A stretch of 64,000 nt of DNA from a phage. The translations under genes were made by a program, and so were the position numbers. The notes below the pieces were generated by a model, which had not been told where the DNA came from, ran no database searches, and saw nothing but the letters and a program-made list of their open reading frames with translations. Shown here in pieces: positions 32,888 to 56,140 of this stretch (positions are counted from its first letter, which is position 1; each line of letters opens with the position of its first letter). The stretch is from assembly GCA_024672315.1 (NCBI GenBank), contig GCA_024672315.1_4714.1, one strand, 5' to 3'.

Positions 32888-33598
32888 TCACCCCCTCAGA
32901 ATCGCTTCTGTTTCGCTGATCGTATCCGCAGGATAAACCAAACTACTATCGATTGCGTTATTCACGTAACCACCCATTAAGTTGGTGATGGTGTTTGTAC
33001 CACTATCGATAATGTTTCGTAATCCGATGTCGATGGCTTTTAACGTACTGCGTTCCTCATCCGAAAGCAGACGCCACGCTCGACGACGATCGTTGGGGTC
33101 GCGTGTGGTGATAGAAGCCAGAACAGAATAGATGCTGCTGTCTGCGTTCAATTTAACGCCAGCCAATTTCGCTGACGTGTAGAGCAGCTGATATTTTTCT
33201 TTCTCAGTGTACCACCATGGCACTTTACCGAGCGTATAGATCTCGTTATACATCAGCCATGGGAAAGAGTTTCGCATCACGACATCGGTCGACACCAACA
33301 CCGTGTCGCCGGGAAGAAACACAAATTCATAAAACGGCTGACCATCCATGGTAATCTCACGGATGTCAGACGGGTCGATATGGAGCTGGGTCAATGCGTG
33401 GCTGACACCATACTGTCCATCAGGAAGAATAATCGGGCAGCACGCACAAACCCGGTTCTCACTCCCGATGATAGATAAACCCAATCCCTCGTAACGGACG
33501 GGTGTCAGAATCGAACACCCGCCACGAGTAACAACAGATTTATCTTCTTGTATGTCCCAGTCCGCAAGCACCGCAGCACCGTTGCGGACAAGCGCCAT
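32888..33598 (-). CDS. Hypothetical protein (236 aa)
   Basis: ORF in the same operon. Confidence 0.6.
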   Translation of the reverse strand: MALVRNGAAVLADWDIQEDKSVVTRGGCSILTPVRYEGLGLSIIGSENRVCACCPIILPDGQYGVSHALTQLHIDPSDIREITMDGQPFYEFVFLPGDTVLVSTDVVMRNSFPWLMYNEIYTLGKVPWWYTEKEKYQLLYTSAKLAGVKLNADSSIYSVLASITTRDPNDRRRAWRLLSDEERSTLKAIDIGLRNIIDSGTNTITNLMGGYVNNAIDSSLVYPADTISETEAILRG

Positions 33599-35122: not shown

Positions 35123-35355
35123 TACTGCGCTCCCTCCAACGCATTACTACCTACGGGTTCTTTGGTTTCCAGACGGCTGTTTAAGCGCGCAGCAACCGCA
35201 TCTTCCAATCCCAACGGCATAACCTTTTTGTTCACGTCGGGATCGGCGGCATCATTACCAACGGTTTGACGTACGACCTCAGCAACCAACGTTACCGCGT
35301 TCGTCAGCGCAACAAAGCTCGCTGCCCGAGCCGTGTTAAGTTGTTCTTGGTTCAT
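35122..35355 (-). CDS. Small hypothetical protein (77 aa)
   Basis: ATG preceded by AAAGGAAAAGTGA (RBS). Confidence 0.45.
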   Translation of the reverse strand: MNQEQLNTARAASFVALTNAVTLVAEVVRQTVGNDAADPDVNKKVMPLGLEDAVAARLNSRLETKEPVGSNALEGAQ

Positions 35356-35430
35356 TCACTTTTCCTTTTAATGTCAGAGCATCGCATTCTTGACATGCGT
35401 CAAGAAGGTATTGCGTTCAGCGAAATAAAC

Positions 35431-35456
35431 GAGCAGGGGCATGACGCCCCCTGCTC
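35431..35456 (-). terminator. Perfect 11-bp hairpin GAGCAGGGGGC-atgac-GCCCCCTGCTC directly after the beta gene stop
   Basis: Followed on the minus strand by GTTTATTTCGC (U-rich). Confidence 0.55.
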
Positions 35457-38400
35457 TTATTTAGCGTCGTTAAAGTAAATATCAACAGCTCGTTCCGTTG
35501 CGTAGAGGAGACCAAGATTCACAGTCCCAACCACTTCCGGTGAACCGATGATACGGTTAGCGATACTGGTGCCACTGAAGATAGCATCAAGGGTGTGCCC
35601 GTCTTCGGTTTTGTTCACACCATGACCCACGGAAGAGACAACGGATTTCGCTTGTGCTGCGAAGGTACCTTTATCACCCATCCCCGCACCAAGGTCGTAA
35701 CGCATGAAAATACGGATAGCGATCTGGTTCTCGCCTAACGGATTACCGTCTATTCTCACGTTACTGTTATTGATACGCCCTGTTGTTGCCTCGCTGAGTT
35801 TCAGTTCCTTGACGCGTTTAGCTCGCGCTTTATCCGCTTCACCGACGAGCGCCGCCATGGTTTCGCTCATATCCTCAATCTGAGCGCGGTACAGTACATC
35901 GATCTGTACAACTTCACCATGAACATCAGCACGTGGGTTATACTGACTCATACGACGTAATGCTTCAACGGCTTCCTGACTCTCATCACTCAGATCAGTT
36001 GCGATCGGTTCTTCCAGTGTTGCAAGAATCGTTCGCGGTTCAACGTGGTCGCCGATTTTCACAAGACCACGAATGTTGAGATGGGCGTCAACGATAAGCG
36101 TACGGCTCTTAATCGATGGTGTTACGAGACGATCAGCAAGATTGTCGAAGATATACGAACTGTCCTCGTGAGTCTCTGGAATATCCAGAATACCGACAAG
36201 AGACAGAACACCTGCGCGCCAAACAACCTGACCCGGGTTCCACCAATCGCGTTTAAAATAAAGACGATGGAAAACCACCACATCCTGATCCTTAACGCGA
36301 TCCCCGACTTTATAATCGGTAATGAGATCATGGGGATAATACTTACCTGGTCCTTTCCCGATTATCGTACCGAGCTGGAAAACCTCTTCCCCTAACTCTG
36401 GATCGTCGTATTGTATCGTAAGCGCGGTTTTGGTGACCTTCTTCACAACACCATCGCCTTGGGCAGCTGCTGCGAAGAGCTTACCAACACGATGCGCGAT
36501 GACAGTCTCACCACCTGTACGCCACGGTTGTACATCGTAACCTTCAGCAGCAATCATGCGGTTGTGTTGGATCCCGACAAAGACCAGACGTTTTCCATCG
36601 TCGCGGTCTACAGCCGGAACAGCTAACGCTGACGTACTCATTACCGATGAAATGCCGTCTGTCTTTTCATCGAATGGTCGTGTTTCACCATATACCGACA
36701 CGATATTAGCATTAGGTGCGAGGTAAGCAGAAATACCTACGTCCCCGCTATCTTTCGTACCCTCTGACACAATACCAACATCGGACTTGTCGTATTCACG
36801 ATCGCGTGCGCGTCGAAGCGATGTCTTTGAACGACCTCCGATACCGGTCATCGTCGCTTCTTCACCCTGCTTGATATCCAACATCGGGTTGGTTTCATCA
36901 ATCACGATGGAAGCACTGTCGTCGAGAATCTGGTTCCAGACACTTACCGGACTGATTGATATTTTCTGGCGATTTCCTTGACTGCTGTTCTCATTCTGAC
37001 GAATAGCACCAACCAGGTCCTTATACACCAATTCAGCGAACTTATCGTACGTTTTAAAACGTTGGTAGTTCACATCGTTCGTGTTAGGAGCCCAATCATC
37101 CAGAAGCAGTTCAACAGCACGCAGTAACAACATGGCGAAATCGGTAGGTTCTCCCATGTTCTGTAGCAACGTACGGCTTACCGGATCAACGAAAAGACGC
37201 TCCATGAGTTCAAGTTCGCGTAAATGACGAACCTTAAGTCCAGCACCATCGACAACGTTAAAATAGATATCTCGATTGTCAAAAGCGCCGCGAGCGTAAC
37301 CGATGTAGTTACGGTATTCGTTAAACCCACCCAGCAACAACGTCGTCATGCGATCGTCTTTACTGAAGATCAAACTTTCGTCATCAAAGCTCACCGCGAA
37401 TTCATCGGGTGCTAGACCCATACGAGAACCGCGAGGTACCGTACGATAGTTCGCTTTAAGATGTTCTAATAACGGGGTAAGTCCACCCAGATAACTTAGA
37501 ACAACACCGACCGGAATACGTACACCCATGAATTCAAGATCGGCGGCTTCGATCGGCATCTTAGCCGCATTGATACCGAAGAAATCAGGGAACGTCCCTA
37601 CAGGTGTTGGTGTTTGTCCTGACTGACAGATATAGAGCTGATTGCGTTTATCGATTGCTAAGAATTCACCCAGCGTGTTACGCGCAAACGTCAGGAGCCC
37701 TTCGGCTAACTGTTCGTTGAACCGATCTTCCCCGATGAACTCCGGCAATGTCTTTGTATCGAGACGTATATCCCAATCAGCAAATTGGATTTGGGTATAG
37801 TTGCGTGCAAGCACAGCGAAGTAATACGGAACTTTGACGGCCGGATCAAAGACGTTACCGCGTTTCAACGTGGTTAAGGGTGAGGATTTATCGTAATACA
37901 TCGCCGTAAGTTGACGTGTTAGCCAACGACCGGCGTTATTAACGACGCGCTCTGAACGTTTAACAAACACCTTACCGTAGGCGGTACTCAACGCAACTTC
38001 AGATGACGATACCTTTCTAATAGGTTTATCAACACGTTGTTTACGCATCCGGTATTTGATGCCGTTAACGACATAAATGCCATCCTTACGAACCTTCGGC
38101 AACATCACCGGGAACGTGGTCGGGACACCGCCTACGGGAGCCAGTTTAATCGTGATGACTTGATAATCCCCCATCACGTCAACAACATCTTCGACTTTAT
38201 ATCCCGTAACAGGGTAACCCGCCTGCTGTACCGCAACAACAGCGGCTGCGATGTCCTTTTGCATTACGTGTTCAACGTAATGTTTATCCCACACCGCAAG
38301 CGTCGATTTACACAGGCTCTTATCGACGATAACATCCGCTTCCGGCATAACCTTTGCAGGAGCTAATTTCGCGGCTTTTGGTTTAACTTCAACATACTCG

Positions 38401-39803
38401 GCAAGTGTTAATCCAGAACCGTCGGGTGCTTCGATTTCATGGATGGCGTCAGCATTACGCATCGCTGCTTTATATTGGACACCGCTTAACTGACCTGCAT
38501 CGGCCAGATCGCTCGCGCGCACCAACACCGCATCCGATAACGACTGAATATACTCACCGTGTGTTTTTGGTAACGTTGTCGCGTCAAAGACATCAACCTT
38601 TTCTTCTTCGGTATCGTCGGTAACGACTTCGAAGAGATCGTCGGTAATGTCCTGATCTTCATCAGGTTGGAAATCCGGTTGTACTTCTACCCCAGGTACT
38701 TCACGGACATCTTCGAACGAGCGTTCTACAATGGCGTTCCACGCATCAGCGTCATCGTCTTCATCCGACCCGCCGACCAACTCAGCTTCTAACTCATCGG
38801 GATCAAGAACGGTAGCCAGATCCTCACCGTTAGGAAGCACGACGTCGCGATCATCGTACTCCGCATCCGGGCTGTCCGCAAGAATATCTCGCTCCTGACG
38901 AAGAACCTGTTCCTCTTCTTGTTTCTGTTCTTCTTCATTCGCGCTCTGCGACCACAGACGTGTTACCGCCATCATCCAACGACGTTGGAAGGTTTCAAGT
39001 GTCGTTTTATCGAGTTCTTCCCCTTCCTTTACAAGTCCGGTACGCCATTCTTCCAGCAGGCCGAGATTCAGCGTAAAGAAGTACACGCCGTCTGTGAATA
39101 CAACGTTAAGCTTGTCCAGCGTGGCTCTGTCTAACGAAGCCATCGTGCTGTTCTCACGATCGGTTCCCAGCCAGCGGAAGAAGTCAAAGAACGACAGCTC
39201 CTCCGGTGTGGCGAAATTCATGAGGTTGTTACGGGTCGGTGCCTGTTGCGTGGTACGCATCAACGAAATCTTCGGCAATGTTGACGGTATACGGAACAAC
39301 AAAAAGTGTTGGCGATCGCTTTGCTGTGCGATTTCGTTGGCTTTCGACCAAATTGTTTTACGTACATTGAACCATTCATCATACCAACGGGTGAGCGTTG
39401 GACGATAAATGTACATGTGGTTAAGATGCGCGTAGTTAGCAACGATCTGAGCGTTGATGTTTTTCTCCACCGTGCTTAGATCGGTAACCAAACGAAAACG
39501 ACGATGTGATGCACGATAATCCAATTTCGCTCGTGGGAGTTGGAATCGTTGATCGCGTCGAGGTGCACCCTGTTTGGTTGCGAGATCATCAGCAAACGAA
39601 ATCCATAGTTGAGCATTTTCTTTACTCAGCATGTATTCGTTTTCTGGAGGACCTATCAATGAAGGATCCGTTGCGATGTAATGATAGACAGCATAACGCG
39701 GCAGCTGCAATAGCTGCACTAAACGTAATCTTGGTGATAGTAACTCTTGGTAGCGTCTGACACCAAACTGTCGGTAGTAATCAAGGTATTTAAGTTTTGC
39801 CAT
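35457..39803 (-). CDS. Multisubunit RNA polymerase beta-like subunit (N-terminal part of beta; 1448 aa)
   Basis: TGIGGRS..RRARDREYD..VGIVSEGTKDSGDVGISAYLAPNA aligns with E. coli RpoB [40 protein letters not shown]; downstream AVPAV and GDKG segments align with beta NMQRQAVP and GDKxAGRHGNKG. No GEME region, so the beta C-terminal part is presumably encoded elsewhere. ATG at 39803 preceded by GGAG and an in-frame stop 2 codons upstream. Confidence 0.8.
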   Translation of the reverse strand: MAKLKYLDYYRQFGVRRYQELLSPRLRLVQLLQLPRYAVYHYIATDPSLIGPPENEYMLSKENAQLWISFADDLATKQGAPRRDQRFQLPRAKLDYRASHRRFRLVTDLSTVEKNINAQIVANYAHLNHMYIYRPTLTRWYDEWFNVRKTIWSKANEIAQQSDRQHFLLFRIPSTLPKISLMRTTQQAPTRNNLMNFATPEELSFFDFFRWLGTDRENSTMASLDRATLDKLNVVFTDGVYFFTLNLGLLEEWRTGLVKEGEELDKTTLETFQRRWMMAVTRLWSQSANEEEQKQEEEQVLRQERDILADSPDAEYDDRDVVLPNGEDLATVLDPDELEAELVGGSDEDDDADAWNAIVERSFEDVREVPGVEVQPDFQPDEDQDITDDLFEVVTDDTEEEKVDVFDATTLPKTHGEYIQSLSDAVLVRASDLADAGQLSGVQYKAAMRNADAIHEIEAPDGSGLTLAEYVEVKPKAAKLAPAKVMPEADVIVDKSLCKSTLAVWDKHYVEHVMQKDIAAAVVAVQQAGYPVTGYKVEDVVDVMGDYQVITIKLAPVGGVPTTFPVMLPKVRKDGIYVVNGIKYRMRKQRVDKPIRKVSSSEVALSTAYGKVFVKRSERVVNNAGRWLTRQLTAMYYDKSSPLTTLKRGNVFDPAVKVPYYFAVLARNYTQIQFADWDIRLDTKTLPEFIGEDRFNEQLAEGLLTFARNTLGEFLAIDKRNQLYICQSGQTPTPVGTFPDFFGINAAKMPIEAADLEFMGVRIPVGVVLSYLGGLTPLLEHLKANYRTVPRGSRMGLAPDEFAVSFDDESLIFSKDDRMTTLLLGGFNEYRNYIGYARGAFDNRDIYFNVVDGAGLKVRHLRELELMERLFVDPVSRTLLQNMGEPTDFAMLLLRAVELLLDDWAPNTNDVNYQRFKTYDKFAELVYKDLVGAIRQNENSSQGNRQKISISPVSVWNQILDDSASIVIDETNPMLDIKQGEEATMTGIGGRSKTSLRRARDREYDKSDVGIVSEGTKDSGDVGISAYLAPNANIVSVYGETRPFDEKTDGISSVMSTSALAVPAVDRDDGKRLVFVGIQHNRMIAAEGYDVQPWRTGGETVIAHRVGKLFAAAAQGDGVVKKVTKTALTIQYDDPELGEEVFQLGTIIGKGPGKYYPHDLITDYKVGDRVKDQDVVVFHRLYFKRDWWNPGQVVWRAGVLSLVGILDIPETHEDSSYIFDNLADRLVTPSIKSRTLIVDAHLNIRGLVKIGDHVEPRTILATLEEPIATDLSDESQEAVEALRRMSQYNPRADVHGEVVQIDVLYRAQIEDMSETMAALVGEADKARAKRVKELKLSEATTGRINNSNVRIDGNPLGENQIAIRIFMRYDLGAGMGDKGTFAAQAKSVVSSVGHGVNKTEDGHTLDAIFSGTSIANRIIGSPEVVGTVNLGLLYATERAVDIYFNDAK

Positions 39804-39806
39804 GGG

Positions 39807-39986
39807 TTAGGCTCCACGAGGTCCCGTTAAGTTGCGTAATAGGAACGCAACCGTATCGTAACCAATATCGATGTTGAATTTATTTTTACCACTTACCCAG
39901 AAAGCACGCTTCTTGTGCGAGTTGGTAATTTCGTCAATGGCTTCCATGGAATAAAGAACGTTAACCGAGACCGTATCGCCGTCGAA
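39807..39986 (-). CDS. RNA polymerase beta-prime-like subunit, exon 2 (59 codons: FDGDTVSVNVLYSMEAIDEI...)
   Basis: Translation aligns with E. coli RpoC [21 protein letters not shown] immediately after the catalytic aspartates; the exon stop is 3 nt before the beta start codon. Splice boundary inferred, plus or minus a few nt. Confidence 0.6.
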   Translation of the reverse strand, partial: FDGDTVSVNVLYSMEAIDEITNSHKKRAFWVSGKNKFNIDIGYDTVAFLLRNLTGPRGA

Positions 39987-40505
39987 CCTTGTCTTCGCCT
40001 CAGGTCGCTACGCTGAGACCGCCTGCGTGGATACGTACATCACAGGCTGCTTGCACTTTCATGCAAGAGGAGACTATATCAAACCGTCAGCTTCACCTGC
40101 TACGGTAACCTACACTTCGAAGACGCTTGTCCTCTACAGGGTGGTAAATCCCTTAGTCGTTGAACCTGCGTTGTTTCACATTCTTGTTTGCAAGAATGCC
40201 GTATTGCTACGCAACAACCAGGCTGCTGATTGCCCATTATCACGCACCTTAGCACCGCTTACGCGGCTTTTCTTTCAGCCTAAGCCTCCGTGGGAGGTAG
40301 TGCATCTCAACTGTTGTTTCCGCCTTTCGGCACCTCATGGGTTGTTGAGCTTTAGGGGTTCCCAGCAATTCGTAGGTTTTTCAAGCACTCCCTTTCGGGA
40401 ATACCGGACCAATTCAGTTAGTAAACAACATTATTACCATCCCTCATTCTTAAGGGTTAATTTTTTAAAATGATAAAATTAATGTGTTTTTGGGCTAACT
40501 CGAAG
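39987..40505 (-). other. Group I self-splicing intron (about 519 nt) within the RNAP beta-prime gene
   Basis: On the minus strand in canonical order: P-like AATTGCTGGGAAC (plus 40358-40370), Q-like AATCAGCAGCC (40221-40231), R-like GTTCAACGACTAAGG (40151-40165) and S-like GATATAGTC (40072-40080); exon 1 ends in U, the intron ends in G; no long ORF on the intron coding strand. Confidence 0.75.
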
Positions 40506-41972
40506 ATCACCGCCTAAACCGGCGAGGTATGGCGCAGGAACAATAGTCGTTTCTACGAACGAAGCATTAGGTAACCAGTCGGGGTATTCCCATGCGATAA
40601 ATCGTTCATCCGTTATTGGTTCCCAGTTACTATCCAGTTCGGTTTTCGGTTTTGCAGCGACGGTTGTACGCGCGTAACAGGTTAACGGGATAACGGATTG
40701 CATACCCGATACCGGATAACGTGTTACCATCGCAGCCAGGTTATTCCAGTACTTATATCCGGCGATATAGATAAGCTCGGTGTAAGTAATGGGGTGAACA
40801 TCCGCACCAGGTTTATTCAACATCTCTGGGGGTAATTCACTCATACCACGGAATAACCGAAACGAATCGTTGTTCACATAGACGAGGCAAAGATAACGTC
40901 CATTAACCATGATAGGCTCGTTACGCACACCAGGATCGCTTAAGGTGTTCAATAAACGTTCTATTCCGTCCCATGTTGTAAAGTCATCGATGGTATCTGG
41001 GTCTAACGTGACACGTTCACGTTCCATCGTTTCGATATCGATAAGTTCAACTTCTGTAACATCACGGACAAATATTTCCTGCAAAATCCCCGTACGTAGC
41101 GCATGTTGCGTTACAGGGAGAGCAGCTTTACTCATCTGGTATAACCCTAACTGAACCGCGGTACAGGAAGGCTGGTTAGGCGACCCTAATACCTCCGTTG
41201 TGGGGTTAATTGCCGAAATAACGTTACGGGTTGAGTTCCAAACGCGACGTGAGCCGAACTTACCTTGGAAGATCCCTTTCTTACCCTGGAACATATCCAA
41301 CAGTAAAGCGTAGATATCGTTAAATGTTCTCTGTAAGCTCCAACGTTGACCGTCGTAAACGGGATCAGAATAATCTTTTAATCCATCAGGGACGGTGTTA
41401 GAAATTGCAAGGAAACGACGATACAACTCCGTGATTTCTTGCTCGCTTTCATACCCACCTTCTTTTACTTCTATTTCACGTAAGCCTGCAGGCAATACCA
41501 GTAAGTGACGGGTCATCGCTTTGAACATGTTCTCTTCGACAACTTTAATTCGTAGCTCTCGTTGAGCTGAACCCGTTGAAACGAACTTGATATCAGCGAC
41601 GTGTTGTGCAAAGAACCCGTATCCTGTTTGTCCTGTTAATGCATCAGACGCAACGAAGTCGCGTTGTTCAGGATCCCAACGAGCATACGCCTTTCCCGAC
41701 ATGATATCACCATAGAGGTGTTTTAGTCGAATGAGGCGGTCGTAAATGACGGGATGCAGGATTTCAACTTTGCATTCAATCACCGCAAATCGACGGTCTC
41801 GATCTTCACTACCTGCGCTACCAAAGATGGTGTAAGAATAGAAACCATCATCGTGGAAATTACCGGTGCTTGGGTCACGAATGCTCATGCTCGTGATCTT
41901 GGGGAGAAAACGTAACTGCTGTTTATCGAGGTGTAAAATGCTAATGTTAAACGGCTCTCTGACTTTAGCCAT
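40506..41972 (-). CDS. RNA polymerase beta-prime-like subunit N-terminal part, exon 1
   Basis: AVIECKVEILHPVIY (compare GHIELAAPVAH), LLVLPAGLREIEV..EITELYRRFLAISN (compare VLPVLPPDLRPL..DLNDLYRRVINRNN) and FQGKKGIFQGKFGSRRVWNSTRNVIS (compare [23 protein letters not shown]); ATG at 41972 preceded by AAGAGGAG. The unspliced frame runs 8 codons into the intron to a stop at 40479. Confidence 0.8.
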
Positions 41973-42217
41973 GGAGACACTCCTCTTTACCACCACCGGC
42001 TGCGGCGGTATCATCTGAACACACGAGAGACGTAATGGGTGATGGCGTCACCCATCGCTTCCTTGCCTGATGCCAGGAAGTTATTAGGTTACGTACCGGC
42101 TTGATAAAATCAAGCAGGCGATGTGTGAAGTTACGCTTCAACATTATCAATGCCGAAGGTAAGCTTCGTGCATCACGTTCCAACGTAACATGGGAACGTA
42201 TCGAACTGGAGGTATAC

Positions 42218-45200
42218 ATGGTAGATAAAACCCGTGTTGAGGGTGATGATAATTGGGATAACTGGGATGAAGACTTCTCCCTGGATCTCGATTTCAACGA
42301 ACCCAAAGACGATCGTAAACCGATAACACGCTTTGCGATAGGAGCGGTTAAAGGTGCCGCTGAGGATCTTACTTCCTACGAAAGAATGAAGGAGATCGCC
42401 AGAAACGCATTGCCTAAGGGCTACAGCGACGGTATGGATCTTATCGATTCCGCCGTCGGATCCACGAAGGAACTATACAATGAAGCCGTTCGTGACGTTC
42501 TTCCTAAGGTCCAAAGCTCAAAACGGTTAGCTGCACAACTGACCAAGAAATACCGCGCGAGCATGCCCGATTTCTCGAAGAAAATTCTCGAGCAATGGGA
42601 GCGAGAAGCCAAGGAAGAAGACGAACGTAAACATGCTGAAGAAACCCTTCGTCAACGCATGGCGAGCGCGGGGGACGATGAGATTGCCCGCAAGGTTGCC
42701 GAGGCATTAGGCGAATCAGCAAACCAAAACGCGGATCAGTTCGCTGAACAGCAAGCGAAAGAGAGTATCCGTGACGATATCGCTGATAAACGGTACGCTG
42801 TAACCAACAAACAAATGAGTGCGATGCAAGAAGGCGTCGCCAAGATGGTTGGTTTCAACAACGAATTCGCTGCACGTTACATGCGTAAAAGCCTGGAACT
42901 GAAATATCGTTCCTTAGCGATTCAACGTGCAAGTTTTGATCAGCATAAAAAGTTAGCCGAAGTCTATATCGGTTTATTACAAAACATCCAGAAGAATACG
43001 GCTTTACCTGATGCGGCTAAAGCGAAAATGTCGGAAGAATTCCGTCGTAGCGCATACCAACGTTTCTTTGGTAATGCGTTAGATGCGATGGGTTCTTTCG
43101 AGAACCGTTTCTTTGCCGATGTTAAGAAGAACCTTGCCACCAACGCATTAGGTGCTTTAAAAGGCGTCGTGTCTGGCGCAAACGATGCGTTATACGGTTT
43201 AAACGAAGCGCGTGACTCGATGTCCATGATGGACGGGATGGGGTCAGAAGGCGATATTAAGGAAATGCAAGGAAAGATGTTGGGTCAGTTCATTGGCTCA
43301 ACTGTCGCACCATGGATGGCTAATAAAGGCAGGATGGCGTTACGTGATTTAGCAAAACGCCACCCCAATGCTAAATTCGCAAGTGCGTTAAAAGCCGTGG
43401 ATCAAGGTGGTGAGGCTGCCGCTTACACGACGCGTAATCTCGGTAAACTGCTCCAGGAAGATATTCGTAAAAACGAATTCAATCTTAGCGATCCGTTTTA
43501 CAAGCAATTAATACGCGGCGCAGGGCGTTGGGCGTTCAACATGGACAGCGGACGTAACTTCCGTGTGATGAACGACACCGCTGAAACGCTGGCGGAGCAA
43601 ACGTCTTTCGACGGTTTAACCTACCGCAGCATCAACGAGGTTATTCCAGGCTTTCTTGCACGCATTCTGAAAAGCAGTGAAGGTATCCGCACCGGAAACA
43701 GCGATCCTGACTACGAGGTCTATGACGGCATCAGCGGGCAATTCGTGTCTCAGCGCACGCGTGAGCAAAGCGTCAACGACACACTGTTTAACAAACGTAC
43801 GTTTGGTTATTACGCCAGCCGTTTCAACGAGGTTATCTCGGTCATCGATCCCGATAAGAAATTATCGGAAAAAGCCAGGAAGGCACTGGCTAAGCAGCTG
43901 GCACGAGATAGCGACGCAAACATCGCATTCGACCCAGCTCGTTTTACGGATGAAAGCAACTTCGATCGTAGTATTGACCGCGACGCTATTAAGGAACTTT
44001 CCACGTACTTTCGTGATCGTTACGGTATTCGTGACGATATCAACGATAAGGGCGAACGTCATCAGGTCATTGGAAACCGCGGGCAATATTACACGGAACG
44101 TAACCGAGCTGACCTTCGCTACGGTAATCTGAAATCTTTACAGCCGGATATTCAGCGTAACCTTAACCTACTGAAACGTACTGGTGACGTCCAATATCTG
44201 GAACGTATTGGTATCGTAACGAGAAATAGCGACGGAAGCTACTCGGTTAATCACGATCGGTATTTCTCTGAAATCGATCGATACATCGACCGACCGGAGT
44301 ACGCTGAACGTAACGACGTTAATACGCGATTAACCGCTCAGGAAACAAGAGCGCTGGCGTTGGGTTATCGTGACGCAAAACCATCAGCTGATGACGTCCA
44401 AAATGCGGGTCTGCCACACATCGGTCGTAAGGCTGTTGGAACAGTAACCGTTGATGAAAACATCGGCTACGATAAATGGTGGAACGACACAGGTGTTATC
44501 ACCACATCGCTTGAAGAACAGAATCGAGCGTGGCAAGAACTCTATCTCGAAGCGTTATCTGAAGCATCCGAACAACGTACTGAAATGCTTGCGTTACTGA
44601 AAGCCATTTCTGAGAAAGACCGGTCTAATAACGTTTCGTTGGACGGCGAAGATGTACCTGAAGGTACGGCACCCATTTCATTTATCGATCGTGCCAAACA
44701 AAAACTCGGTGCACGCAACCCCTTTAAAGGCGGCCGTAATCTCCTCTGGAAAGGAATTAAAAATACCGCACGTTGGGGTGTTAAAGGCGCGCGCTGGGGT
44801 GCAGAACGCACGTTGGGTAGTTTGGTAAATTCTGGCCGTCGCATTATCAATTTCAACCGTTTTGTGTTCGGTGCATTATCCAAAGTCGATCAGGTTCCGT
44901 TTGACATTTACGTTAAAGGGGAATCCCAACCACGCATACTGGCTGCTAAACTTCGTCAGGGGTTATACTTCGACGAAGCGACAGGAAAAGCCGTAAAACG
45001 GATGAAGGATATCAAAGGCCCACTCGTTGATGCTGATGGAAACATCGTAATCAGCAACGAGGATATCGAGAAAGGGTTGGTCACTCGCGCGGGTCGTGCC
45101 TTTGAGAATTCAGGACTTAAGGCGTGGGCACGTGAAGGTCTTAATGGAATCACGACGGTATTAAGTCTACCACGGATGTTAAAACGCGGTGCGGTCGAGA

Positions 45201-48200
45201 TCTACAAACAGCTTGACAAGACGCCCGACGTTTACGTCAAGGGAGAATCAACGCCTCGTCTGTTGTCCATGGTGTTAGCAGCGGGTGGGTATTTCCGTCG
45301 GTCGGATGGACAAGTCATCAAAAATCTTGAAGACATCGATGGTGATGTTGTTGATGCACAAGGTAACGTCGTACTTACGCTTGCCGACATGCAGAAAGGA
45401 CTTGTCGATAAATACGGTAAAGCGATTCGTCGCTTAAAAGAAAAGCTCATCAACTTCGGTGTAAAAGCTTTTACGTTACCGTTAACGCTGCTACGTAAGA
45501 CAAAGGACATCCTTAAAGCCCTTCCAGGTAAAGCCGTTAACGGTCTACGACGGATGGGATTAAACTTCCAATCACCTGACGCATTACTGGTGGGAACAAC
45601 GTCGAGTATGGTAGATCGTCTCGATGCGATTTACCAGCTTCTTGACCAGCGTATGCCGGGTGGTGATAAGGATTACCGCGATTGGAATGGCGATGGTGTT
45701 CGAGAAGGATCGCTGGAAGACCTAAAACGTAAGCGTGAAGCCAAGGAAAACGGTAAGGACGACACCGGCAAAGATTCCAATAAAGGGGAAGAAAAGGAGA
45801 AGAAACGAGGATTACTCGGAAGCCTTTTCGATATGCTCGGCGATACCGCATTAGGCAAACGACTCATGGCGAGTCCGCTTGGAAAAATTCTAGGTGGTCT
45901 TGGGGCGGTGTTAAGCGGCGGTGCATCGTTAACCGGGTTGTTGGGCAAGGGTCTCATTAGTGGAACCGGCGCGCTGGTCAAGGGGGGACTAAGTGCGGCA
46001 GGATGGTTAGGACGTGGTGCGTTAATGGCGGGTGGGGCCGCGTTGAACGCCGTTGGTGGGTTATCGGGATTAGGTGCATTCCTTATCTCACCTGTTGGGC
46101 TTGCTATCGCTGGCGGTGCATTGGCTGCTTATGCTGGATGGAAGATCTATCAGCATTTCGCTGAGAAGCCTGACCCGATGCAGAAACTCCGTCTTATTGC
46201 ATACGGTGCAAAAGGGGACGATAAAGACTTCAATAAGAAGCTGCTTGCGACAGAAACATACCTCACCGATCACGTGGTTATGACCGGGGATACCATCGGA
46301 TTCGATCCGAAAGCGGATTCTGAAAAGATTCTCGAAATCTGGGAATTGTCCCTGGAAGATTCCGACCGAATGAACGAATGGAAACGCTGGTATCTGCATC
46401 GTTTTATTCCTGTTTTCGCTCGTGCGTACAAACTCTGGAAAGAGCATATGCCGGACGAGAAGAAATACATGGAAATGGATAAATATCCGAACGGTGAGAA
46501 CAAAGTGAAATGGTCGGAAGCGTTTATCTGGCCTTCCGATAGTCCTGACGGTCCGTATTACGTCGAAGCTAACCCGTTGGGTTCTTCTGGTGCGACGCGT
46601 TATATTGCTGGTCAAGACGTCAAAACCTTGATGCTGAAACAACTCGAAGCCATCAAGAAAGAGTACCAGAATCAGATTAAGCAATACACTCATGATGAGG
46701 CTATTGCTGATTGGTCACGGATGTCTGACACGCAACGTAAATCCGTTGCGCCTAACGCATTACGCGGTCAGAAAGCGTCGTTACGTTTTAACGATAAACG
46801 TTACAACAGTGCTGGCGCTAAAGGACGACAGAAGCTTGACGCAACCGCGGTTATTGAAAGCGTAGACCGTCGTGGTAGAAAATGGGTTGCCGGTGGATAC
46901 ATCGATGAACTCACCAGTCTCCGTGTTCGTGCGTACGGTATCAAGGTTCCGTTGTTAAGTCAGATAAAAGTGCTGATGGAACTCGAAGACGCTGTAGAAC
47001 CTGGCGTAGTCGCTGAAGGTAAAGGTGTTAAATACGGTGGCGATCTTGTTGCGCTCTACAAGAAATTCGCGACGAAGTTCGGAAGAGACGTTAACAGCAA
47101 GCGGGATCAGGATATCTGGTTCGCTTGGATGAATAACCGTTTCCTGCCCGTCTTTTTAACCTATTACCAACAAGTTAGCGACATGGGCGGTCAAGGACTT
47201 CTGTCCGACGTGGTACAGAACCTGAAAGACAGCCAACGCTGGGAAATCGGTGAAGCACTTGTCGCAACGCAATACCGTGATGAGAAAGGTACACTGCAGC
47301 CTGTATGGTCCTGGAATAGTTGTGGTTTCTCCGGTACTGAAGCTAACACCACCAGCAGTTCAACAAAGAGCCAGCTCGATCTGTTAAAAGAATATGCGGA
47401 TAAAGAGAAGGTTCGTGAGAAGAACGCGGAAGCATCGCAAGAGGATGCCGATAAATTATCGAAGATCCAAGAGCTGATGATGAAGCAGGCTGGGTACGAG
47501 AAGAAAGACGGTGTCTGGCAGAAGAAATCACGCATTACCGGCGGGATGAGTAACGCCGAAGCGAATTACAACCCCAATGGGAATAGGGTAGGTGCAAGCA
47601 GCTTTACTGCTTCGGCTACTTCCAGTGCTGGGTTGGGGTCAACCGGCGATCTTACTGGATTGCCTAACATGGGCTTACAGAAACCTGCAATGGGACCAGG
47701 TCCTGAAGCTGGACGTCGTGCGCTTGTTAAATCCGCTGTAAAACGCGGCATTACCGATCCAATGGAAATGGCGATGTTCCTCGCGAACATCGAACATGAA
47801 TCAGGGAACTACACTCACGTACGTGAGGGGAACTATAAGACACCAGAGCGTCTTAAACAGGTCTTCCCTTACAAATTCCGTGATGTACAGGATGCCGCAC
47901 AGACGATCAGCATGGGGCCGGAAGCGGTATTCGAACGTGTGTATGGTAATCGTAAAGATCTCGGGAACACACAGAAAGGGGACGGGGCGAAGTATTTAGG
48001 ACGTGGCTTCATTCAGGTTACCGGTAAAGCTAACTACGCTCGTCTGTCCAAGACCTTGAATAAGGATCTTGTCAGCGATCCGACATACCTGGAAACGCCG
48101 GAAGGTGCGGCGGAAGGTAGTGTCGCATGGTGGCTCAACCGAGGTAACGTGTTACGCGATCCCGCAAAACGGGGTGATGTACGCCAAGTTCGTTATCTGG

Positions 48201-48883
48201 TTAACGGCGGTTTTAACGGATTACGCGATGTTGAACAACGTTCAGCTTATTGGATTCAGGCGGCTAAGAATGGCACCCTGAAGAGAATGATGGACGAGTT
48301 ATCAGGGTCAACATCAGACGATCAAGCTGAAGGACCGACCACTGCCGAACAGGTGAAGAACGAAGCAGCACAAGAGGCAAACGGAACACCTGCTGTAAGC
48401 AACGATCCGCAAGCCCCAGTATCTTCTACTACCCCTGAAGCTAAACCGTCTGCGGCTGCCGGGACGGCCCCAGCACCTGGAGAAGCATCACCAACGCCTG
48501 GAAGTTTCGAAACAGCAAAAGCCGCGGCAGGACAACCGACATCAACTCCAGCACCTAGCGATTTGCCGTCAAACCCGGGCGCAAATCGAGGGATATCGGT
48601 TCCGAATACGCCTGCACAGGTTGCGCAGTCTGCGACACAAACATCGGTTGCAAGTGAGAACTTCTACGGTAGCGCAGGTGAAATTCTCCGACAGCAGCTG
48701 ACCACGCAGCAGAACATCGAGAAGAACACCGGTAGAACGAATGAACTTATTTCGGAATTAATCCAAGCCGTTAAGGGTTCTTCTATCGGTAAGGGTTCTG
48801 CAGGTCCTTCTCAACAACAGACGATGTCGCTACCTAATCGTCCGCAAGGAATCTCTCCAACACGGACAAGGTACGCACAGTAG
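42218..48883 (+). CDS. Giant virion protein (2221 aa) with glycine-zipper membrane segment and C-terminal GH19-like muralytic domain
   Basis: Start re-assigned to ATG at 42218 (GGAGGTATAC RBS). Gly-rich hydrophobic segment at about 45900-46150; GH19/chitinase-like motifs ANIEHESGNY and YLGRGFIQVTGKANY at about 47760-48270; P/A/S/T-rich linker at 48290-48600. Size and domain order resemble the ~2237-aa phiKZ gp181 family. Confidence 0.8.
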   Translation: MVDKTRVEGDDNWDNWDEDFSLDLDFNEPKDDRKPITRFAIGAVKGAAEDLTSYERMKEIARNALPKGYSDGMDLIDSAVGSTKELYNEAVRDVLPKVQSSKRLAAQLTKKYRASMPDFSKKILEQWEREAKEEDERKHAEETLRQRMASAGDDEIARKVAEALGESANQNADQFAEQQAKESIRDDIADKRYAVTNKQMSAMQEGVAKMVGFNNEFAARYMRKSLELKYRSLAIQRASFDQHKKLAEVYIGLLQNIQKNTALPDAAKAKMSEEFRRSAYQRFFGNALDAMGSFENRFFADVKKNLATNALGALKGVVSGANDALYGLNEARDSMSMMDGMGSEGDIKEMQGKMLGQFIGSTVAPWMANKGRMALRDLAKRHPNAKFASALKAVDQGGEAAAYTTRNLGKLLQEDIRKNEFNLSDPFYKQLIRGAGRWAFNMDSGRNFRVMNDTAETLAEQTSFDGLTYRSINEVIPGFLARILKSSEGIRTGNSDPDYEVYDGISGQFVSQRTREQSVNDTLFNKRTFGYYASRFNEVISVIDPDKKLSEKARKALAKQLARDSDANIAFDPARFTDESNFDRSIDRDAIKELSTYFRDRYGIRDDINDKGERHQVIGNRGQYYTERNRADLRYGNLKSLQPDIQRNLNLLKRTGDVQYLERIGIVTRNSDGSYSVNHDRYFSEIDRYIDRPEYAERNDVNTRLTAQETRALALGYRDAKPSADDVQNAGLPHIGRKAVGTVTVDENIGYDKWWNDTGVITTSLEEQNRAWQELYLEALSEASEQRTEMLALLKAISEKDRSNNVSLDGEDVPEGTAPISFIDRAKQKLGARNPFKGGRNLLWKGIKNTARWGVKGARWGAERTLGSLVNSGRRIINFNRFVFGALSKVDQVPFDIYVKGESQPRILAAKLRQGLYFDEATGKAVKRMKDIKGPLVDADGNIVISNEDIEKGLVTRAGRAFENSGLKAWAREGLNGITTVLSLPRMLKRGAVEIYKQLDKTPDVYVKGESTPRLLSMVLAAGGYFRRSDGQVIKNLEDIDGDVVDAQGNVVLTLADMQKGLVDKYGKAIRRLKEKLINFGVKAFTLPLTLLRKTKDILKALPGKAVNGLRRMGLNFQSPDALLVGTTSSMVDRLDAIYQLLDQRMPGGDKDYRDWNGDGVREGSLEDLKRKREAKENGKDDTGKDSNKGEEKEKKRGLLGSLFDMLGDTALGKRLMASPLGKILGGLGAVLSGGASLTGLLGKGLISGTGALVKGGLSAAGWLGRGALMAGGAALNAVGGLSGLGAFLISPVGLAIAGGALAAYAGWKIYQHFAEKPDPMQKLRLIAYGAKGDDKDFNKKLLATETYLTDHVVMTGDTIGFDPKADSEKILEIWELSLEDSDRMNEWKRWYLHRFIPVFARAYKLWKEHMPDEKKYMEMDKYPNGENKVKWSEAFIWPSDSPDGPYYVEANPLGSSGATRYIAGQDVKTLMLKQLEAIKKEYQNQIKQYTHDEAIADWSRMSDTQRKSVAPNALRGQKASLRFNDKRYNSAGAKGRQKLDATAVIESVDRRGRKWVAGGYIDELTSLRVRAYGIKVPLLSQIKVLMELEDAVEPGVVAEGKGVKYGGDLVALYKKFATKFGRDVNSKRDQDIWFAWMNNRFLPVFLTYYQQVSDMGGQGLLSDVVQNLKDSQRWEIGEALVATQYRDEKGTLQPVWSWNSCGFSGTEANTTSSSTKSQLDLLKEYADKEKVREKNAEASQEDADKLSKIQELMMKQAGYEKKDGVWQKKSRITGGMSNAEANYNPNGNRVGASSFTASATSSAGLGSTGDLTGLPNMGLQKPAMGPGPEAGRRALVKSAVKRGITDPMEMAMFLANIEHESGNYTHVREGNYKTPERLKQVFPYKFRDVQDAAQTISMGPEAVFERVYGNRKDLGNTQKGDGAKYLGRGFIQVTGKANYARLSKTLNKDLVSDPTYLETPEGAAEGSVAWWLNRGNVLRDPAKRGDVRQVRYLVNGGFNGLRDVEQRSAYWIQAAKNGTLKRMMDELSGSTSDDQAEGPTTAEQVKNEAAQEANGTPAVSNDPQAPVSSTTPEAKPSAAAGTAPAPGEASPTPGSFETAKAAAGQPTSTPAPSDLPSNPGANRGISVPNTPAQVAQSATQTSVASENFYGSAGEILRQQLTTQQNIEKNTGRTNELISELIQAVKGSSIGKGSAGPSQQQTMSLPNRPQGISPTRTRYAQ

Positions 48884-48932: not shown

Positions 48933-51074
48933 ATGGGTATTCTTGTTCAAAACGCCCTAATAACCAAACAAGCGTTTTTATTACCTGGCGATAGCAGCAC
49001 GCTTAGTGCTGACATGATTAAAGCGAGACATACACCGTATTCCTACGATAACGTCGATGATACCACCTTAGGTGGGAACTGGGTGCTTAACCCGCCACCG
49101 CAATATACCAAATTTGCCGACATCAAAGAACGCCGACGTGCGGTTATGCCGGGATCAACGGGCATGGGCCGAGGCTATAGTGAAAGCATTAACAGCTTTA
49201 AAGAAGTCGTTACCTTACGATTCGGTAAACCTCGCTTTACAGGCGCAAGTATCTTCTTTACCGATTTCTACGACGCCGATGTTGCCGTAACGGTTAAAAC
49301 CGGTCGCGATCCCGGTATTCTTTATTACGCAGCCAAAGCGTATACCACCGTTCTTTCTTACCTCACACCGCTACCTTACCTGTATATGGTTGGACGTATC
49401 GGTCGATATTTCCTGGGTAAGCCTACCAGTCAATATTACTATCAAGTACCAACCATGCACGTGTATTGGGCGTCTTTCCAGACGCTGGTAAACCAAACAG
49501 CGATAAACATGGGTCTTATCGCCGGTGCCGGTAAAGATAAAGGCTACGTGGAAGAAGGGGGTACCGTACTCCATCAATATTCAATCGGTGGTCAGAACGT
49601 TGAAGAATTCATCAACTACGCCTCTAAGACGCTACCGGGGATTTATAAGAAAGGTGGTGGGATCGATATCTACCAGATTGCAACACGTCGTCAGCGTATA
49701 CAAAACGCATGGGTACGTCGTATTCAATCCATGATGGAAAACGATTACTCGTCTTACGAGGAGTTCTGGAACGATCTTGATAAACGACTTGATAGCGGAG
49801 CATTTCCATCGGATGTAACCGGTCGTACGTTAACGCAGTATCTCGCCGACACACAGAAGTCTGCTGTTTACAGTGCGACAGCTGGTGATAATAAACAAAC
49901 GATGGACGACCTTTTATTCGGAAGGGCCTCATACACCAACAAGGATGCTGATGCTAACTTCAATGTCTCAGCGGCTACCTCCGACGGCGGTACGTCAACA
50001 CAGAGTCAGGGTACAACAGCCAATGTCGGTAATTCAACATCGGGGACAACGCAGGCTTCAACAGCAGCATCCACGGCTGGAGGCGCGAACGTACAGAGCA
50101 AAGGAATCGGACAAACGAATGCAGCCGAAGAAGCTACGTTTCTTGATCTGATGGACGCTGAATTGGCCGACGGTGCTCAGTTCATCAGTTTTCGAGTCGA
50201 TTCTGTCACCAGTGTAACCGAAACGTTTTCAAACAGTGCTTCAGAAAGTTCAATCGCACAGACGATGAACAGCCGTGCACAAGCGAACATCGAACGTCGT
50301 TTCACCCTCTCCGGCGGTAATACAGGTTGGGCTGTACTGGACGAAGCCATCAAAGCCGGTTCCGACCTCGTTAATGGCGCTATTTCCGGGATGGGTTTGG
50401 ATGGTATTTTTGGTGCCTTCATGGGTTCCGGCTTCGCTGACATTCCGAAATTCTATTCTGGGTCTTCGGTAAGTCTACCGCGTGCGGATCTGACGATGGA
50501 ATTGCGTTCCTGGAGTGGGGATCGTTGGTCGATCTTTACGAACCTCATGGTACCTCTTTTAGCGATCCTTGCAGGTGGTTTACCTCAGGCTACCGGTAAA
50601 TCGTCCTACGGGATGCCATTCATGTGTGAGTGTTATATTCCCGGTAAAGTCCAGATTAAAATGGGTCTTATCGATAACATCACTGTGACGCGTCATGTTG
50701 GGAACGTACCATCAACGCGTGAGCGATTACCGTTGGGTATCGATGTCAGCTTCAGTGTTTATGACCTGTCGTCCATCGTCGCCATGCCGATCACAACGAC
50801 AGCCGCATCGATCGCAAAACTGGATCCTCGTGGCTTCTTAAGTGATCTTCTTGCTGATGATACCCCACTCAACAACTATCTTGCTGTATTATCGGCATTG
50901 ACACTTACGGAACAAGTTTACATGATTCCTGATTTAAGTCGTCGTATGCATAAAACCATGGCCGATATCGATAGTTTCTGGAGCAAAGGTAATTTTGCTA
51001 GCTGGTTATCTGACACCATGCCAGGCAGGATAGCATCAGGGCTGTTATGGAAACGTACAGAACGACCGTTCTGA
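48933..51074 (+). CDS. Hypothetical protein, probable virion protein (713 aa)
   Basis: Long ORF immediately downstream of the giant gene; contains a Ser/Thr/Gly-rich low-complexity region. Confidence 0.7.
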   Translation: MGILVQNALITKQAFLLPGDSSTLSADMIKARHTPYSYDNVDDTTLGGNWVLNPPPQYTKFADIKERRRAVMPGSTGMGRGYSESINSFKEVVTLRFGKPRFTGASIFFTDFYDADVAVTVKTGRDPGILYYAAKAYTTVLSYLTPLPYLYMVGRIGRYFLGKPTSQYYYQVPTMHVYWASFQTLVNQTAINMGLIAGAGKDKGYVEEGGTVLHQYSIGGQNVEEFINYASKTLPGIYKKGGGIDIYQIATRRQRIQNAWVRRIQSMMENDYSSYEEFWNDLDKRLDSGAFPSDVTGRTLTQYLADTQKSAVYSATAGDNKQTMDDLLFGRASYTNKDADANFNVSAATSDGGTSTQSQGTTANVGNSTSGTTQASTAASTAGGANVQSKGIGQTNAAEEATFLDLMDAELADGAQFISFRVDSVTSVTETFSNSASESSIAQTMNSRAQANIERRFTLSGGNTGWAVLDEAIKAGSDLVNGAISGMGLDGIFGAFMGSGFADIPKFYSGSSVSLPRADLTMELRSWSGDRWSIFTNLMVPLLAILAGGLPQATGKSSYGMPFMCECYIPGKVQIKMGLIDNITVTRHVGNVPSTRERLPLGIDVSFSVYDLSSIVAMPITTTAASIAKLDPRGFLSDLLADDTPLNNYLAVLSALTLTEQVYMIPDLSRRMHKTMADIDSFWSKGNFASWLSDTMPGRIASGLLWKRTERPF

Positions 51075-55465: not shown

Positions 55466-56140
55466 TTAGCCCTCATCAAGGTTATTCTGGAGATGCATCG
55501 CGGTGAGGATAACACCAACCGCCGAAACCGATTTTGCCTTGCTGTCTTCAGGGAGCTGCTCCAAGCTTACGGTACCTGTCTCTAACAGCATGCGGTTCAT
55601 CGCGTTGAATTTCTTATCGTCACCACCACGAGCCTGCATCAACTCTCTGTTCACGTTCGGCATCGACCGTCCTAACGTCGCTTGCATTTCCGGCTGGCTC
55701 CAAGTGGAACCTTTACTATCACCCGTCGGCTGATTAGTCAGCTGGTCCTTGGTGTTGTTGTTTTTCGGAATCGAAATTTTAGCACTCAACGTTTCGGCTT
55801 GTCGGCGGTTTGGAATCAGGTACAATCTGGTTGGGCGGTCACGAAGCACCAATTGCCCTGTTTTCTGGTCGGTGAGATAAATACGCTGGAAGAAGGGGAA
55901 ACCGTATTTCTTACCGACTTCCAACGCACGTTTTATCGTCACCTCGTTTTTGTTCATGTTGGGTACCCAGATGGGTAGAATCTCTTTCTTATCCCGACAT
56001 AAACGCATATAGGCATCAAACGTCTCATCATCGATTTCAGCAAAACGTTTTTTGTAAATAGCGTAAGTCGGGCTCGATTCACCCACCAGGTCTTTGATAT
56101 ACCCAAGAATGAATTTTTCTGCTGCAGCGCGGTTGGACAT
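55466..56140 (-). CDS. Hypothetical protein (224 aa)
   Basis: ORF. Confidence 0.6.
   Translation of the reverse strand: MSNRAAAEKFILGYIKDLVGESSPTYAIYKKRFAEIDDETFDAYMRLCRDKKEILPIWVPNMNKNEVTIKRALEVGKKYGFPFFQRIYLTDQKTGQLVLRDRPTRLYLIPNRRQAETLSAKISIPKNNNTKDQLTNQPTGDSKGSTWSQPEMQATLGRSMPNVNRELMQARGGDDKKFNAMNRMLLETGTVSLEQLPEDSKAKSVSAVGVILTAMHLQNNLDEG

Follow-up and report, generated by a model that had tools for sequence, protein, structure and literature searches.

Which RNA polymerase is encoded by a phage gene cluster in which the beta-prime-like open reading frame (ORF) holds only the first of three catalytic aspartates, and where are the others? The cluster occupies positions 35457-48883 of a 64,000-nt stretch of phage DNA (GenBank assembly GCA_024672315.1, contig GCA_024672315.1_4714.1), and this whole stretch is called the window in the following. 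A preliminary description had proposed a virion-packaged, split-subunit polymerase of the phiKZ type with an intron-containing beta-prime gene, encoded back to back with a muralytic giant protein. Our analysis makes it very probable that the cluster forms the core of the module for the virion RNA polymerase (vRNAP), that it comes from a nucleus-forming jumbo phage similar to Goslar (Chimalliviridae), and that it adjoins, in divergent orientation, the gene of a giant muralytic tail protein. The combination of vRNAP and a gp181-type protein is already known as a module; the modest new points are the exact exon structure, the localization of two further subunits in the window, and the ORF-less state of the intron. 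The polymerase genes and their intron are arranged as follows.

35457..39803, minus strand: vRNAP beta-like large subunit, 1448 aa (counterpart of Goslar gp207 and phiKZ gp178; PHROG 3148, E=0)
39807..39986, minus strand: exon 2 of the gene for the N-terminal part of beta-prime (beta-prime-N), 59 codons plus stop, starting FDGDTVSVNVLY...
39987..40505, minus strand: group I intron, 519 nt, no ORF (Rfam RF00028 and protein continuity)
40506..42014 (or from 41972), minus strand: exon 1 of beta-prime-N (PDB matches to AR9 beta-prime, RpoC alignment, PHROG 2986)

The beta-like and the beta-prime-N ORFs were both found on the minus strand, divergent from the 2221-aa gene, as had been described. The beta-prime-N ORF of 511 aa (40479-42014, minus strand) runs nine codons into the intron. 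Exon 1 ends with ...APYLAGLGGD at 40506 and exon 2 opens with FDGDTVS... at 39986, placing the intron between the codons for D and F of the catalytic GGD|FDGD. Removal of 39987-40505 keeps the frame and yields a 562-aa protein (from ATG 42014) with the motif GGDFDGD, which aligns with the magnesium-binding loop NADFDGD of E. coli beta-prime and is intact only after intron removal. The rejoined motif and the RF00028 match of 63.6 bits bear out the claim that this gene contains an intron. The splice boundaries were set on the basis of protein continuity with intron-less homologues. The spliced protein covers positions 3-538/539 of PHROG 2986 (E=1e-178), is matched by an intron-less 547-aa gene of a metagenomic relative, and has 312 matching records; among the matches listed, 58 records other than Goslar align across the junction in one piece. 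The predicted ligated exon junction reads ...GGCGGTGAT|TTCGACGGC...

The frame of exon 2 lacks a start codon in the stretch from the upstream stop to FDGD, and therefore the motif can be made only through splicing. The stop codon of exon 2 lies 3 nt before the ATG of the beta gene. In comparison with Escherichia phage vB_EcoM_Goslar, exon 2 has four synonymous and no non-synonymous codon differences, a pattern that points to purifying selection; the encoded peptides, e.g. FNIDIGYDTVAFLLR, are identical in the Goslar protein. From these data we infer that splicing takes place in vivo. For exon 1, two start codons are available, ATG 41972 (489 codons) and ATG 42014 of the longest ORF (503 codons). 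The former is probably the genuine start, because GAGGAG is found 7 nt upstream, the annotated start in Goslar is the same, and the N-termini of homologues fit; the spliced protein would then have a length of 548 rather than 562 aa. Thus, the designation of the gene as an N-terminal part of beta-prime stands, and its extent probably has to be revised at the start, and has to be revised at the other end, where the 511-aa ORF enters the intron.

The assignment to beta-prime is consistent with profile searches. The 511-aa ORF alone matches the beta-prime N-terminal subunit of the phage AR9 polymerase in the PDB (E=2e-3). A beta-prime-N profile of five sequences has 78 PDB matches at E<=0.01, and the 60 that are listed are all beta-prime or cyanobacterial gamma chains; AR9 beta-prime is the best match among them (E=7.6e-14), and its alignment includes a further block that spans the DxDGD loop. 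The clamp-core motif GKxGxxRxxxxGxRxxxSxRxVI is present in exon 1 as GKKGIFQGKFGSRRVWNSTRNVI. The spliced protein contains four cysteines in total (81, 284, 376, and 446), and the 37-residue zinc ribbon segment of E. coli (C70, C72, C85, C88) is replaced by a linker of nine residues without cysteine, in agreement with the proposed absence of the zinc-finger cysteines. The deletion is common to all four aligned phage sequences, i.e. those of the window, phiKZ gp180, RAY gp163, and a metagenomic homologue, so that loss of the zinc ribbon looks like a shared trait of the aligned phage vRNAPs and the protein like a beta-prime-type rather than a canonical subunit.

In the public records of Goslar (segment L001 13351-13530, 15533-15574) and phiKZ (segment L004 10179-10346), gp205 and gp180 end inside the intron, and the exon 2 of 56-59 codons with FDGD is unannotated. 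Exon 2 is therefore out of reach of proteomic searches that use these records.

The intron was recognized by Rfam RF00028 with 63.6 bits (threshold 50) at 40050-40434 on the minus strand, covering model positions 1-253. The last base of exon 1 is U, and the last base of the intron is G. The following elements were assigned.

40407-40410, minus strand: proposed guide sequence GGUC (intron positions 96-99)
40154-40158 and 40072-40076, minus strand: the two halves of P7, an intron core element
40051-40066, minus strand: P9, an intron core element

In a model built by inspection, the exon bases GAU together with the first intron base can pair with GGUC, giving a P1 with three exon base pairs only. 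An equivalent P1 pairing and a distal helix of differing sequence were found in the introns of Goslar, phiKZ, and OMKO1 (RNAfold and RNAduplex; four introns including that of the window). The helix beyond P1 is formed by intron positions 2-11 with 85-93 in the window and 4-13 with 1558-1567 in Goslar, so that pairing is maintained by different sequences. A window-specific alternative with a P1 of exon UGAU and intron GUUA and a P10 of UCGA and UCGA was dropped, as Goslar has the same exon and cannot form these helices, whereas GGUC is shared.

The Goslar intron, located at the identical codon, has a length of 2044 nt and carries the 490-aa ORF of gp206 (matches to HNH_3 and NUMOD1) and a P8 loop that is 49 nt longer. 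In contrast, the 519-nt intron of the window has no ORF and an unrelated P1 loop of 73 nt. From GGUCCGG on, the two introns are alike (298/315 and 109/110 identical nucleotides), and the distance from the 5′ splice site to GGUCCGG is 94 nt in the window versus 1570 nt in Goslar. The first 94 intron bases of the window show no detectable homology to the first 90 of Goslar (2.1 standard deviations above shuffles), and therefore, unlike in OMKO1, a remnant of the endonuclease ORF is not demonstrated in the window. By this model, the endonuclease gene would sit in the loop of an extended P1 in Goslar, and this place would be taken by a short ORF-free loop in the window.

The same insertion site is occupied in other phages. 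In phiKZ, a group I intron (Rfam 92.2 bits), predicted since 2002 (PMC10914365), splits gp180 precisely between the D and F codons and holds the HNH gene gp179. The phiKZ-like phage OMKO1 has an ORF-less intron of 481 nt at this site (segment L009 1747-2227; 88.4 bits), in which ~89 nt from the beginning of the gp179 ORF region, with the start codon of gp179, and ~108 nt from its end have been retained; it is thus a clear internal-deletion derivative. The intron is absent from KTN4 and most other relatives. In a survey with a junction-spanning fragment, a split match was observed in 18 of 288 records, and several alignments stop exactly at D|F. Hence, an intron with endonuclease gene, an ORF-less intron, and no intron are represented by Goslar, the window, and contig L007 among Goslar-like phages, and by phiKZ, OMKO1, and KTN4 among phiKZ-like phages. 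This distribution suggests that the catalytic codon of the vRNAP beta-prime gene is a recurrent homing site, seen here at three stages of the homing cycle in two lineages. We regard it as possible, albeit doubtful, that the allele of the window is "disarmed but immune", i.e. that the ORF-less intron fills the D|F site and thereby removes the target of a gp206-type HNH endonuclease. If so, the disarmed intron would confer protection in co-infections with Goslar-like phages without the cost of an endonuclease gene, and the three-state pattern would represent an ongoing homing cycle at a catalytic codon of an essential virion enzyme.

Further observations concern neighboring or similar sites. In Aeromonas phage PS1 (segment L010 ~1722-1980), and also in ZPAH34, beta-prime-N is interrupted by ~250 nt after GGDFDG, a few codons downstream of the D|F site, and a small ORF is annotated after the interruption. 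No Rfam family reaches its threshold for the PS1 interruption, which may represent either another type of small intron or a gene that is split. Goslar gp69 (segment L006 21280-22470, outside the window) is another protein with HNH/NUMOD1 that resembles phiKZ gp179; its gene lies beside a DNA polymerase fragment gene and may mark another intron or the site of a free-standing endonuclease.

The second polymerase gene encodes the beta-like subunit. PHROG 3148 ("RNA polymerase beta subunit") spans the entire 1448-aa protein (E=0). A family profile was built from five aligned sequences, i.e. the window protein, two metagenomic relatives, phiKZ gp178, and RAY gp164; the family profiles were built from phage loci, and a word-index protein search gave just three relatives. 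All 25 PDB matches of the beta profile are bacterial RNA polymerase beta chains, the top one being T. thermophilus beta (E=4.7e-10), with profile positions 1050-1389 corresponding to beta residues 535-852. The check that had been proposed for the two ORFs thus had the expected outcome, with the beta profile recovering beta chains and the beta-prime-N profile beta-prime or gamma chains (60 listed of 78). A PDB search with the 1448-aa protein as a single sequence gave only a reverse transcriptase match at chance level, and the five-sequence profile was needed. The active-site motifs HDDANR, ED, and GDK...K read DRDDGKR, HEDSS, and GMGDKG in the window protein. The N-terminal ~500 aa have no detectable cellular counterpart and lie within the phage family profile; because PHROG 3148 covers the full protein, this extension is a conserved feature of the family. 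The extension contains a strongly acidic low-complexity stretch at residues ~290-400 (EEEQKQEEEQ..., DEDDDADAW...). Its gene differs from that of Goslar by 169 synonymous and 12 non-synonymous codons, and the beta protein of the metagenomic relative with intron-less beta-prime-N is 60% identical. Directly past the beta stop codon, the following element was found.

35431..35456, minus strand: terminator-like hairpin with a 9-bp stem, 7 G-C pairs, and a T-rich tail

The Goslar record annotates a terminator at the equivalent place after beta, and the hairpin probably closes the transcription unit of beta-prime-N and beta.

The 1448-aa protein terminates shortly past the GDK...K motif, and the GEME/clamp C-terminal region is not part of this polypeptide. 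The earlier observation of a beta subunit that lacks this region therefore holds, and the 224-aa product of a separate gene was identified as the candidate for it. A further subunit gene was found on the other side of the cluster.

55466..56140, minus strand: vRNAP beta C-terminal subunit, 224 aa (Goslar gp196; PHROG 3233, E=1.1e-65)
32888..33598, minus strand: fifth vRNAP subunit, 236 aa (homologue of Goslar gp210, phiKZ gp176, and SPN3US gp244; PHROG 2926, E=3.7e-56)

The 224-aa protein is 100% identical to Goslar gp196 and matches 290 phage records. It is collinear with E. coli RpoB 1158-1335 in a weak BLASTP alignment (E=0.003 against a single subject, 20% identity), in which its SQPEMQATLG stands opposite FGEMEVWALE of RpoB, suggesting that this gene supplies the GEME-equivalent region that is absent from the 1448-aa protein. 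PDB matches of the 224-aa protein to type VI secretion and Rab proteins were at chance level and were rejected. The 236-aa protein is 100% identical to Goslar gp210 and 28.6% identical to phiKZ gp176, and matches 275 phage records. Taken alone, neither the 236-aa nor the 224-aa subunit had a meaningful sequence match in the PDB. From work on SPN3US, the gp176 family was proposed to be the missing C-terminal segment of beta-prime (PMC5105663). The phiKZ vRNAP consists of gp178, gp149, gp180, gp80, and gp176, without homologues of alpha or omega (PMC7618050), and the phiKZ counterpart of the 224-aa subunit is named gp149 in the literature. Accordingly, orthologues of four of the five vRNAP subunits are encoded inside the window, in line with the proposed split-subunit polymerase of the phiKZ type. 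The middle piece of beta-prime corresponds to Goslar gp78, whose gene is not within the stretch covered by the window (88 kb in the Goslar genome); its matches are weak and all to the beta-prime bridge-helix region. The search for the missing pieces, which the preliminary description had recommended, was thus successful for the beta C-terminus (55466-56140) and the fifth subunit (32888-33598), and the middle beta-prime piece is not in the window.

Several observations argue for the virion enzyme. The beta-prime-N protein matches phiKZ gp180 with E=2e-95 and 38% identity (local tblastn), and the RAY orthologues are annotated as vRNAP beta-prime subunit 1 and beta subunit 1. In a mass-spectrometry preprint on purified Goslar virions, gp78, gp196, gp205, gp207, and gp210 are listed as vRNAP subunits, with 47 peptides for gp207, 10 for gp205, and an estimated ~5-20 copies per virion (supplementary table). 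In phiKZ, tagged gp180 (gp180-mCherry) co-purifies with gp178, gp80, and gp149, and is present in progeny virions (PMC10612078). The predicted packaging is therefore supported by orthologues in virions of a 96% identical relative, from which virion presence is carried over to the phage of the window.

The cluster is surrounded by head and tail genes, i.e. those for the head maturation protease, gp176/gp177-like head proteins, and the tail sheath. Because the flanking genes encode virion proteins, the polymerase genes are embedded in a block of structural genes. The 507-aa ORF at 33599-35122 (minus strand) is the counterpart of Goslar gp209 and occupies the place of phiKZ gp177 ("structural head protein"). 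The 713-aa ORF at 48933-51074 (plus strand) corresponds to Goslar gp203, a component of the tail-tube initiator (2026 cryo-EM preprint). The gene divergent from beta-prime-N and the region between the two are as follows.

42015..42217, unstranded: divergent intergenic region between beta-prime-N and the giant gene, with two hairpin-forming inverted repeats
42218..48883, plus strand: giant virion tail protein, 2221 aa (Goslar gp204, phiKZ gp181; PHROG 3201, PHROG 181)

The giant ORF extends from 42101 to 48883 (plus strand) and encodes 2221 aa from ATG 42218, with the ribosome-binding site GGAGGT 6 nt upstream. PHROG 3201 ("tail fiber protein") matches aa 11-1170 (E=1.5e-295), and the PHROG 181 endolysin profile matches aa 1836-2058 (nt 47723-48391; E=7.8e-53), which agrees with the muralytic function that had been proposed. 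Any assignment to an exact hydrolase family is tentative, as the Pfam GH19 match is below its cut-off (18.1 versus 25.5 bits). The phiKZ counterpart gp181 is annotated as "tail-associated endolysin". In Goslar virions, gp204 was detected with 34 peptides, is flagged as a tail protein, and has an estimated 3-8 copies (mass-spectrometry supplement). Taken together, these data identify a tail component with a C-terminal lysozyme/GH19-like muralytic domain.

The intergenic region presumably holds the promoters of both transcription units. Inverted repeats were observed at 42030-42085 (ATGGGTGA-TGGCG-TCACCCAT and CTTCCT...AGGAAG). Sigma-70-like sites are not enriched over 35100-42300 (8 found versus 9.7 expected from shuffles), and no enrichment is expected because the phage uses its own polymerases.

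How firmly does the evidence favor a spliced virion polymerase? Some points weigh against it. Pfam detects no RNA polymerase domain in either polymerase ORF (1448 and 511 aa), so that the assignments to beta and beta-prime depend on small family profiles and motifs. The P1 pairing comprises just three exon base pairs. Virion presence, timing, and splicing are all transferred to the phage of the window from its relatives. Peptides from exon 2 and the junction were not found in the examined part of the Goslar mass-spectrometry supplement, an observation that carries no information, as the annotated Goslar proteome does not include exon 2. The main evidence against splicing is that long-read transcriptomics of phiKZ gave no indication of it at the homologous gp179 intron under the tested conditions (PMC10914365); considering these data, completion of the catalytic beta-prime could, for example, be confined to late times. 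The same data would also be compatible with an intron that is a dead, non-splicing remnant, with beta-prime-N made as the 511-aa product and exon 2 unused or otherwise supplied, a scenario that gains some support from the loss of the endonuclease gene in the window and from database annotations that end the gene inside the intron. We nevertheless consider it very unlikely, because the truncated product would retain a single one of the three catalytic aspartates in a polymerase that is thought to be essential. In addition, exon 2 has the substitution pattern described above (four synonymous, no non-synonymous) and is conserved in frame across the family, the ribozyme cores of both ORF-less introns exceed the Rfam threshold (window 63.6, OMKO1 88.4 bits), and base pairing in the P1-extending helix is preserved across lineages although its sequence changes.

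A second question is whether the cluster could instead encode the non-virion RNA polymerase (nvRNAP), which would be made early and act inside the phage nucleus rather than being packaged. In these phages, the beta and beta-prime subunits are split in either polymerase, and among solved structures the best match is a non-virion enzyme, the AR9 nvRNAP beta-prime. However, the orthologues are phiKZ gp180 and gp178 and the RAY vRNAP subunits, the Goslar orthologues were detected in purified virions, and the cluster is located among head and tail genes. Furthermore, Goslar gp247, which is annotated as beta-prime-like, lies beside chimallin, and is taken to be an nvRNAP subunit, is a separate gene that ends before the start of the window. 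An nvRNAP identity of the cluster therefore has hardly any probability left. The giant protein, in turn, is labeled "tail fiber protein" by RefSeq and PHROG, and it could be a receptor-binding protein whose place beside the polymerase genes is functionally meaningless, as a conserved adjacency could merely reflect an inherited block of structural genes. This appears improbable, albeit to a lesser degree than the former two alternatives: the only recognizable domain is the lysozyme/endolysin-like domain near the C-terminus, the annotation of phiKZ gp181 points in the same direction, ~3-8 copies per virion suit a central tail protein better than fibers, and the Goslar structure paper ascribes fibers and filaments to gp25, gp29, gp90, and DUF7941.

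For the favored interpretation, a spliced, packaged vRNAP encoded next to a muralytic tail protein, the following course of events can be proposed. The minus-strand unit (exon 1, intron, exon 2, and beta) would be transcribed from the divergent intergenic region and would end at the hairpin 35431-35456. Self-removal of the intron would join codon D to codon F and rebuild the magnesium-binding GGDFDGD loop, whereas the unspliced product would end nine codons into the intron with the first of the three catalytic aspartates only. Beta-prime-N from the spliced message (548 or 562 aa) would assemble with beta (1448 aa), the 224-aa and 236-aa subunits, and the middle piece of beta-prime encoded outside the window to a multisubunit polymerase of five polypeptides. 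The enzyme would be packaged in capsids, be ejected with the DNA, and transcribe early genes independently of the host enzyme, and the C-terminal lysozyme-like domain of the giant tail component would open the peptidoglycan at entry. The sequence analysis itself establishes the identities of the genes, their motifs, the limits of the intron, the synteny, and the near-identity to Goslar. Virion presence in Goslar and early transcription by the vRNAP are taken from the literature; self-splicing in vivo, the operon structure, the timing, and the part played by the giant protein in penetration are what we infer for the phage of the window.

The gene order of the cluster is not restricted to the window. 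The entire 64-kb window is collinear with Goslar (NC_048170) 171,763-237,291, with 96-97.6% identity (local alignment), and Goslar is the sole megablast match of 35457-42014 (95.6% identity). Over the 64 kb, there is a single large indel relative to Goslar, located between the two polymerase ORFs at the intron. The order of beta-prime-N and beta is the same in phiKZ, Erwinia phage RAY, Goslar, and a metagenomic relative (contig L007), and in these four the conserved neighborhood comprises the head protease, a gp176-like and a gp177-like gene, beta, beta-prime-N, and the divergent gp181-like giant gene. The proposed resemblance to the phiKZ gp178/gp180/gp181 neighborhood was thus found to be accurate in order and orientation, and to extend to RAY and the metagenomic relative. 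The 90%-identity cluster that holds a protein identical to the 1448-aa beta of the window has 665 members from Logan assemblies of public sequencing runs. Therefore, Goslar-like phages or laboratory samples of Goslar are well represented in public read archives.

The results have two practical consequences. The exon with the second and third catalytic aspartates is missing from the public Goslar and phiKZ records, and structural, proteomic, and genetic work on the vRNAP should use the spliced sequence. Moreover, the phage of the window and Goslar form a natural pair that differs in one large indel, the intron endonuclease gene, and are paralleled by the series phiKZ, OMKO1, and KTN4. The pair could be used to probe intron endonucleases as weapons in phage competition and the immunity conferred by an empty intron, an idea that has been raised for PhiPA3 (PMC11620839).

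Goslar is the closest of the known systems. Its genes gp204-gp207, gp196, and gp210 have the same set, order, and strands as those of the window at ~96% nucleotide identity, differences between the proteins amount to 0-12 residues (2 in gp205, 12 in gp207) and to 46 in the giant protein, and the group I intron is located at the identical codon. In phiKZ, gp178 (beta, 1451 aa), gp179 (HNH), gp180 (beta-prime-N), and the divergent gp181 (2237 aa) have the order and orientation of the window, but protein identities are only ~32-38%, the host is Pseudomonas, and the intron contains an ORF. Concerning structures, the sequence search of the PDB found no solved vRNAP subunit, and the nearest solved structure by profile (E=7.6e-14) is the beta-prime N-terminal subunit of the nvRNAP of Bacillus phage AR9 (PDB 7S00/7S01). 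It shares with the window the split beta-prime, the DxDGD loop, and the origin from a jumbo-phage multisubunit polymerase, and differs in being a non-virion enzyme of a distant phage lineage with low similarity. A further parallel for the intron is the mobile gp211/gp210/gp209 intron of PhiPA3 (Birkholz et al. 2024, PMC11620839), likewise of group I and inserted at a conserved codon for the active site in a chimallivirus vRNAP gene, and equipped with the gene of an HNH homing endonuclease. The PhiPA3 intron lies in the beta gene, after the DD aligned with E. coli RpoB D675, whereas the intron of the window lies in beta-prime. The PhiPA3 endonuclease is active and was shown to harm a co-infecting phage (PMC11620839); unlike the PhiPA3 intron, the intron of the window occupies its catalytic codon without an endonuclease.

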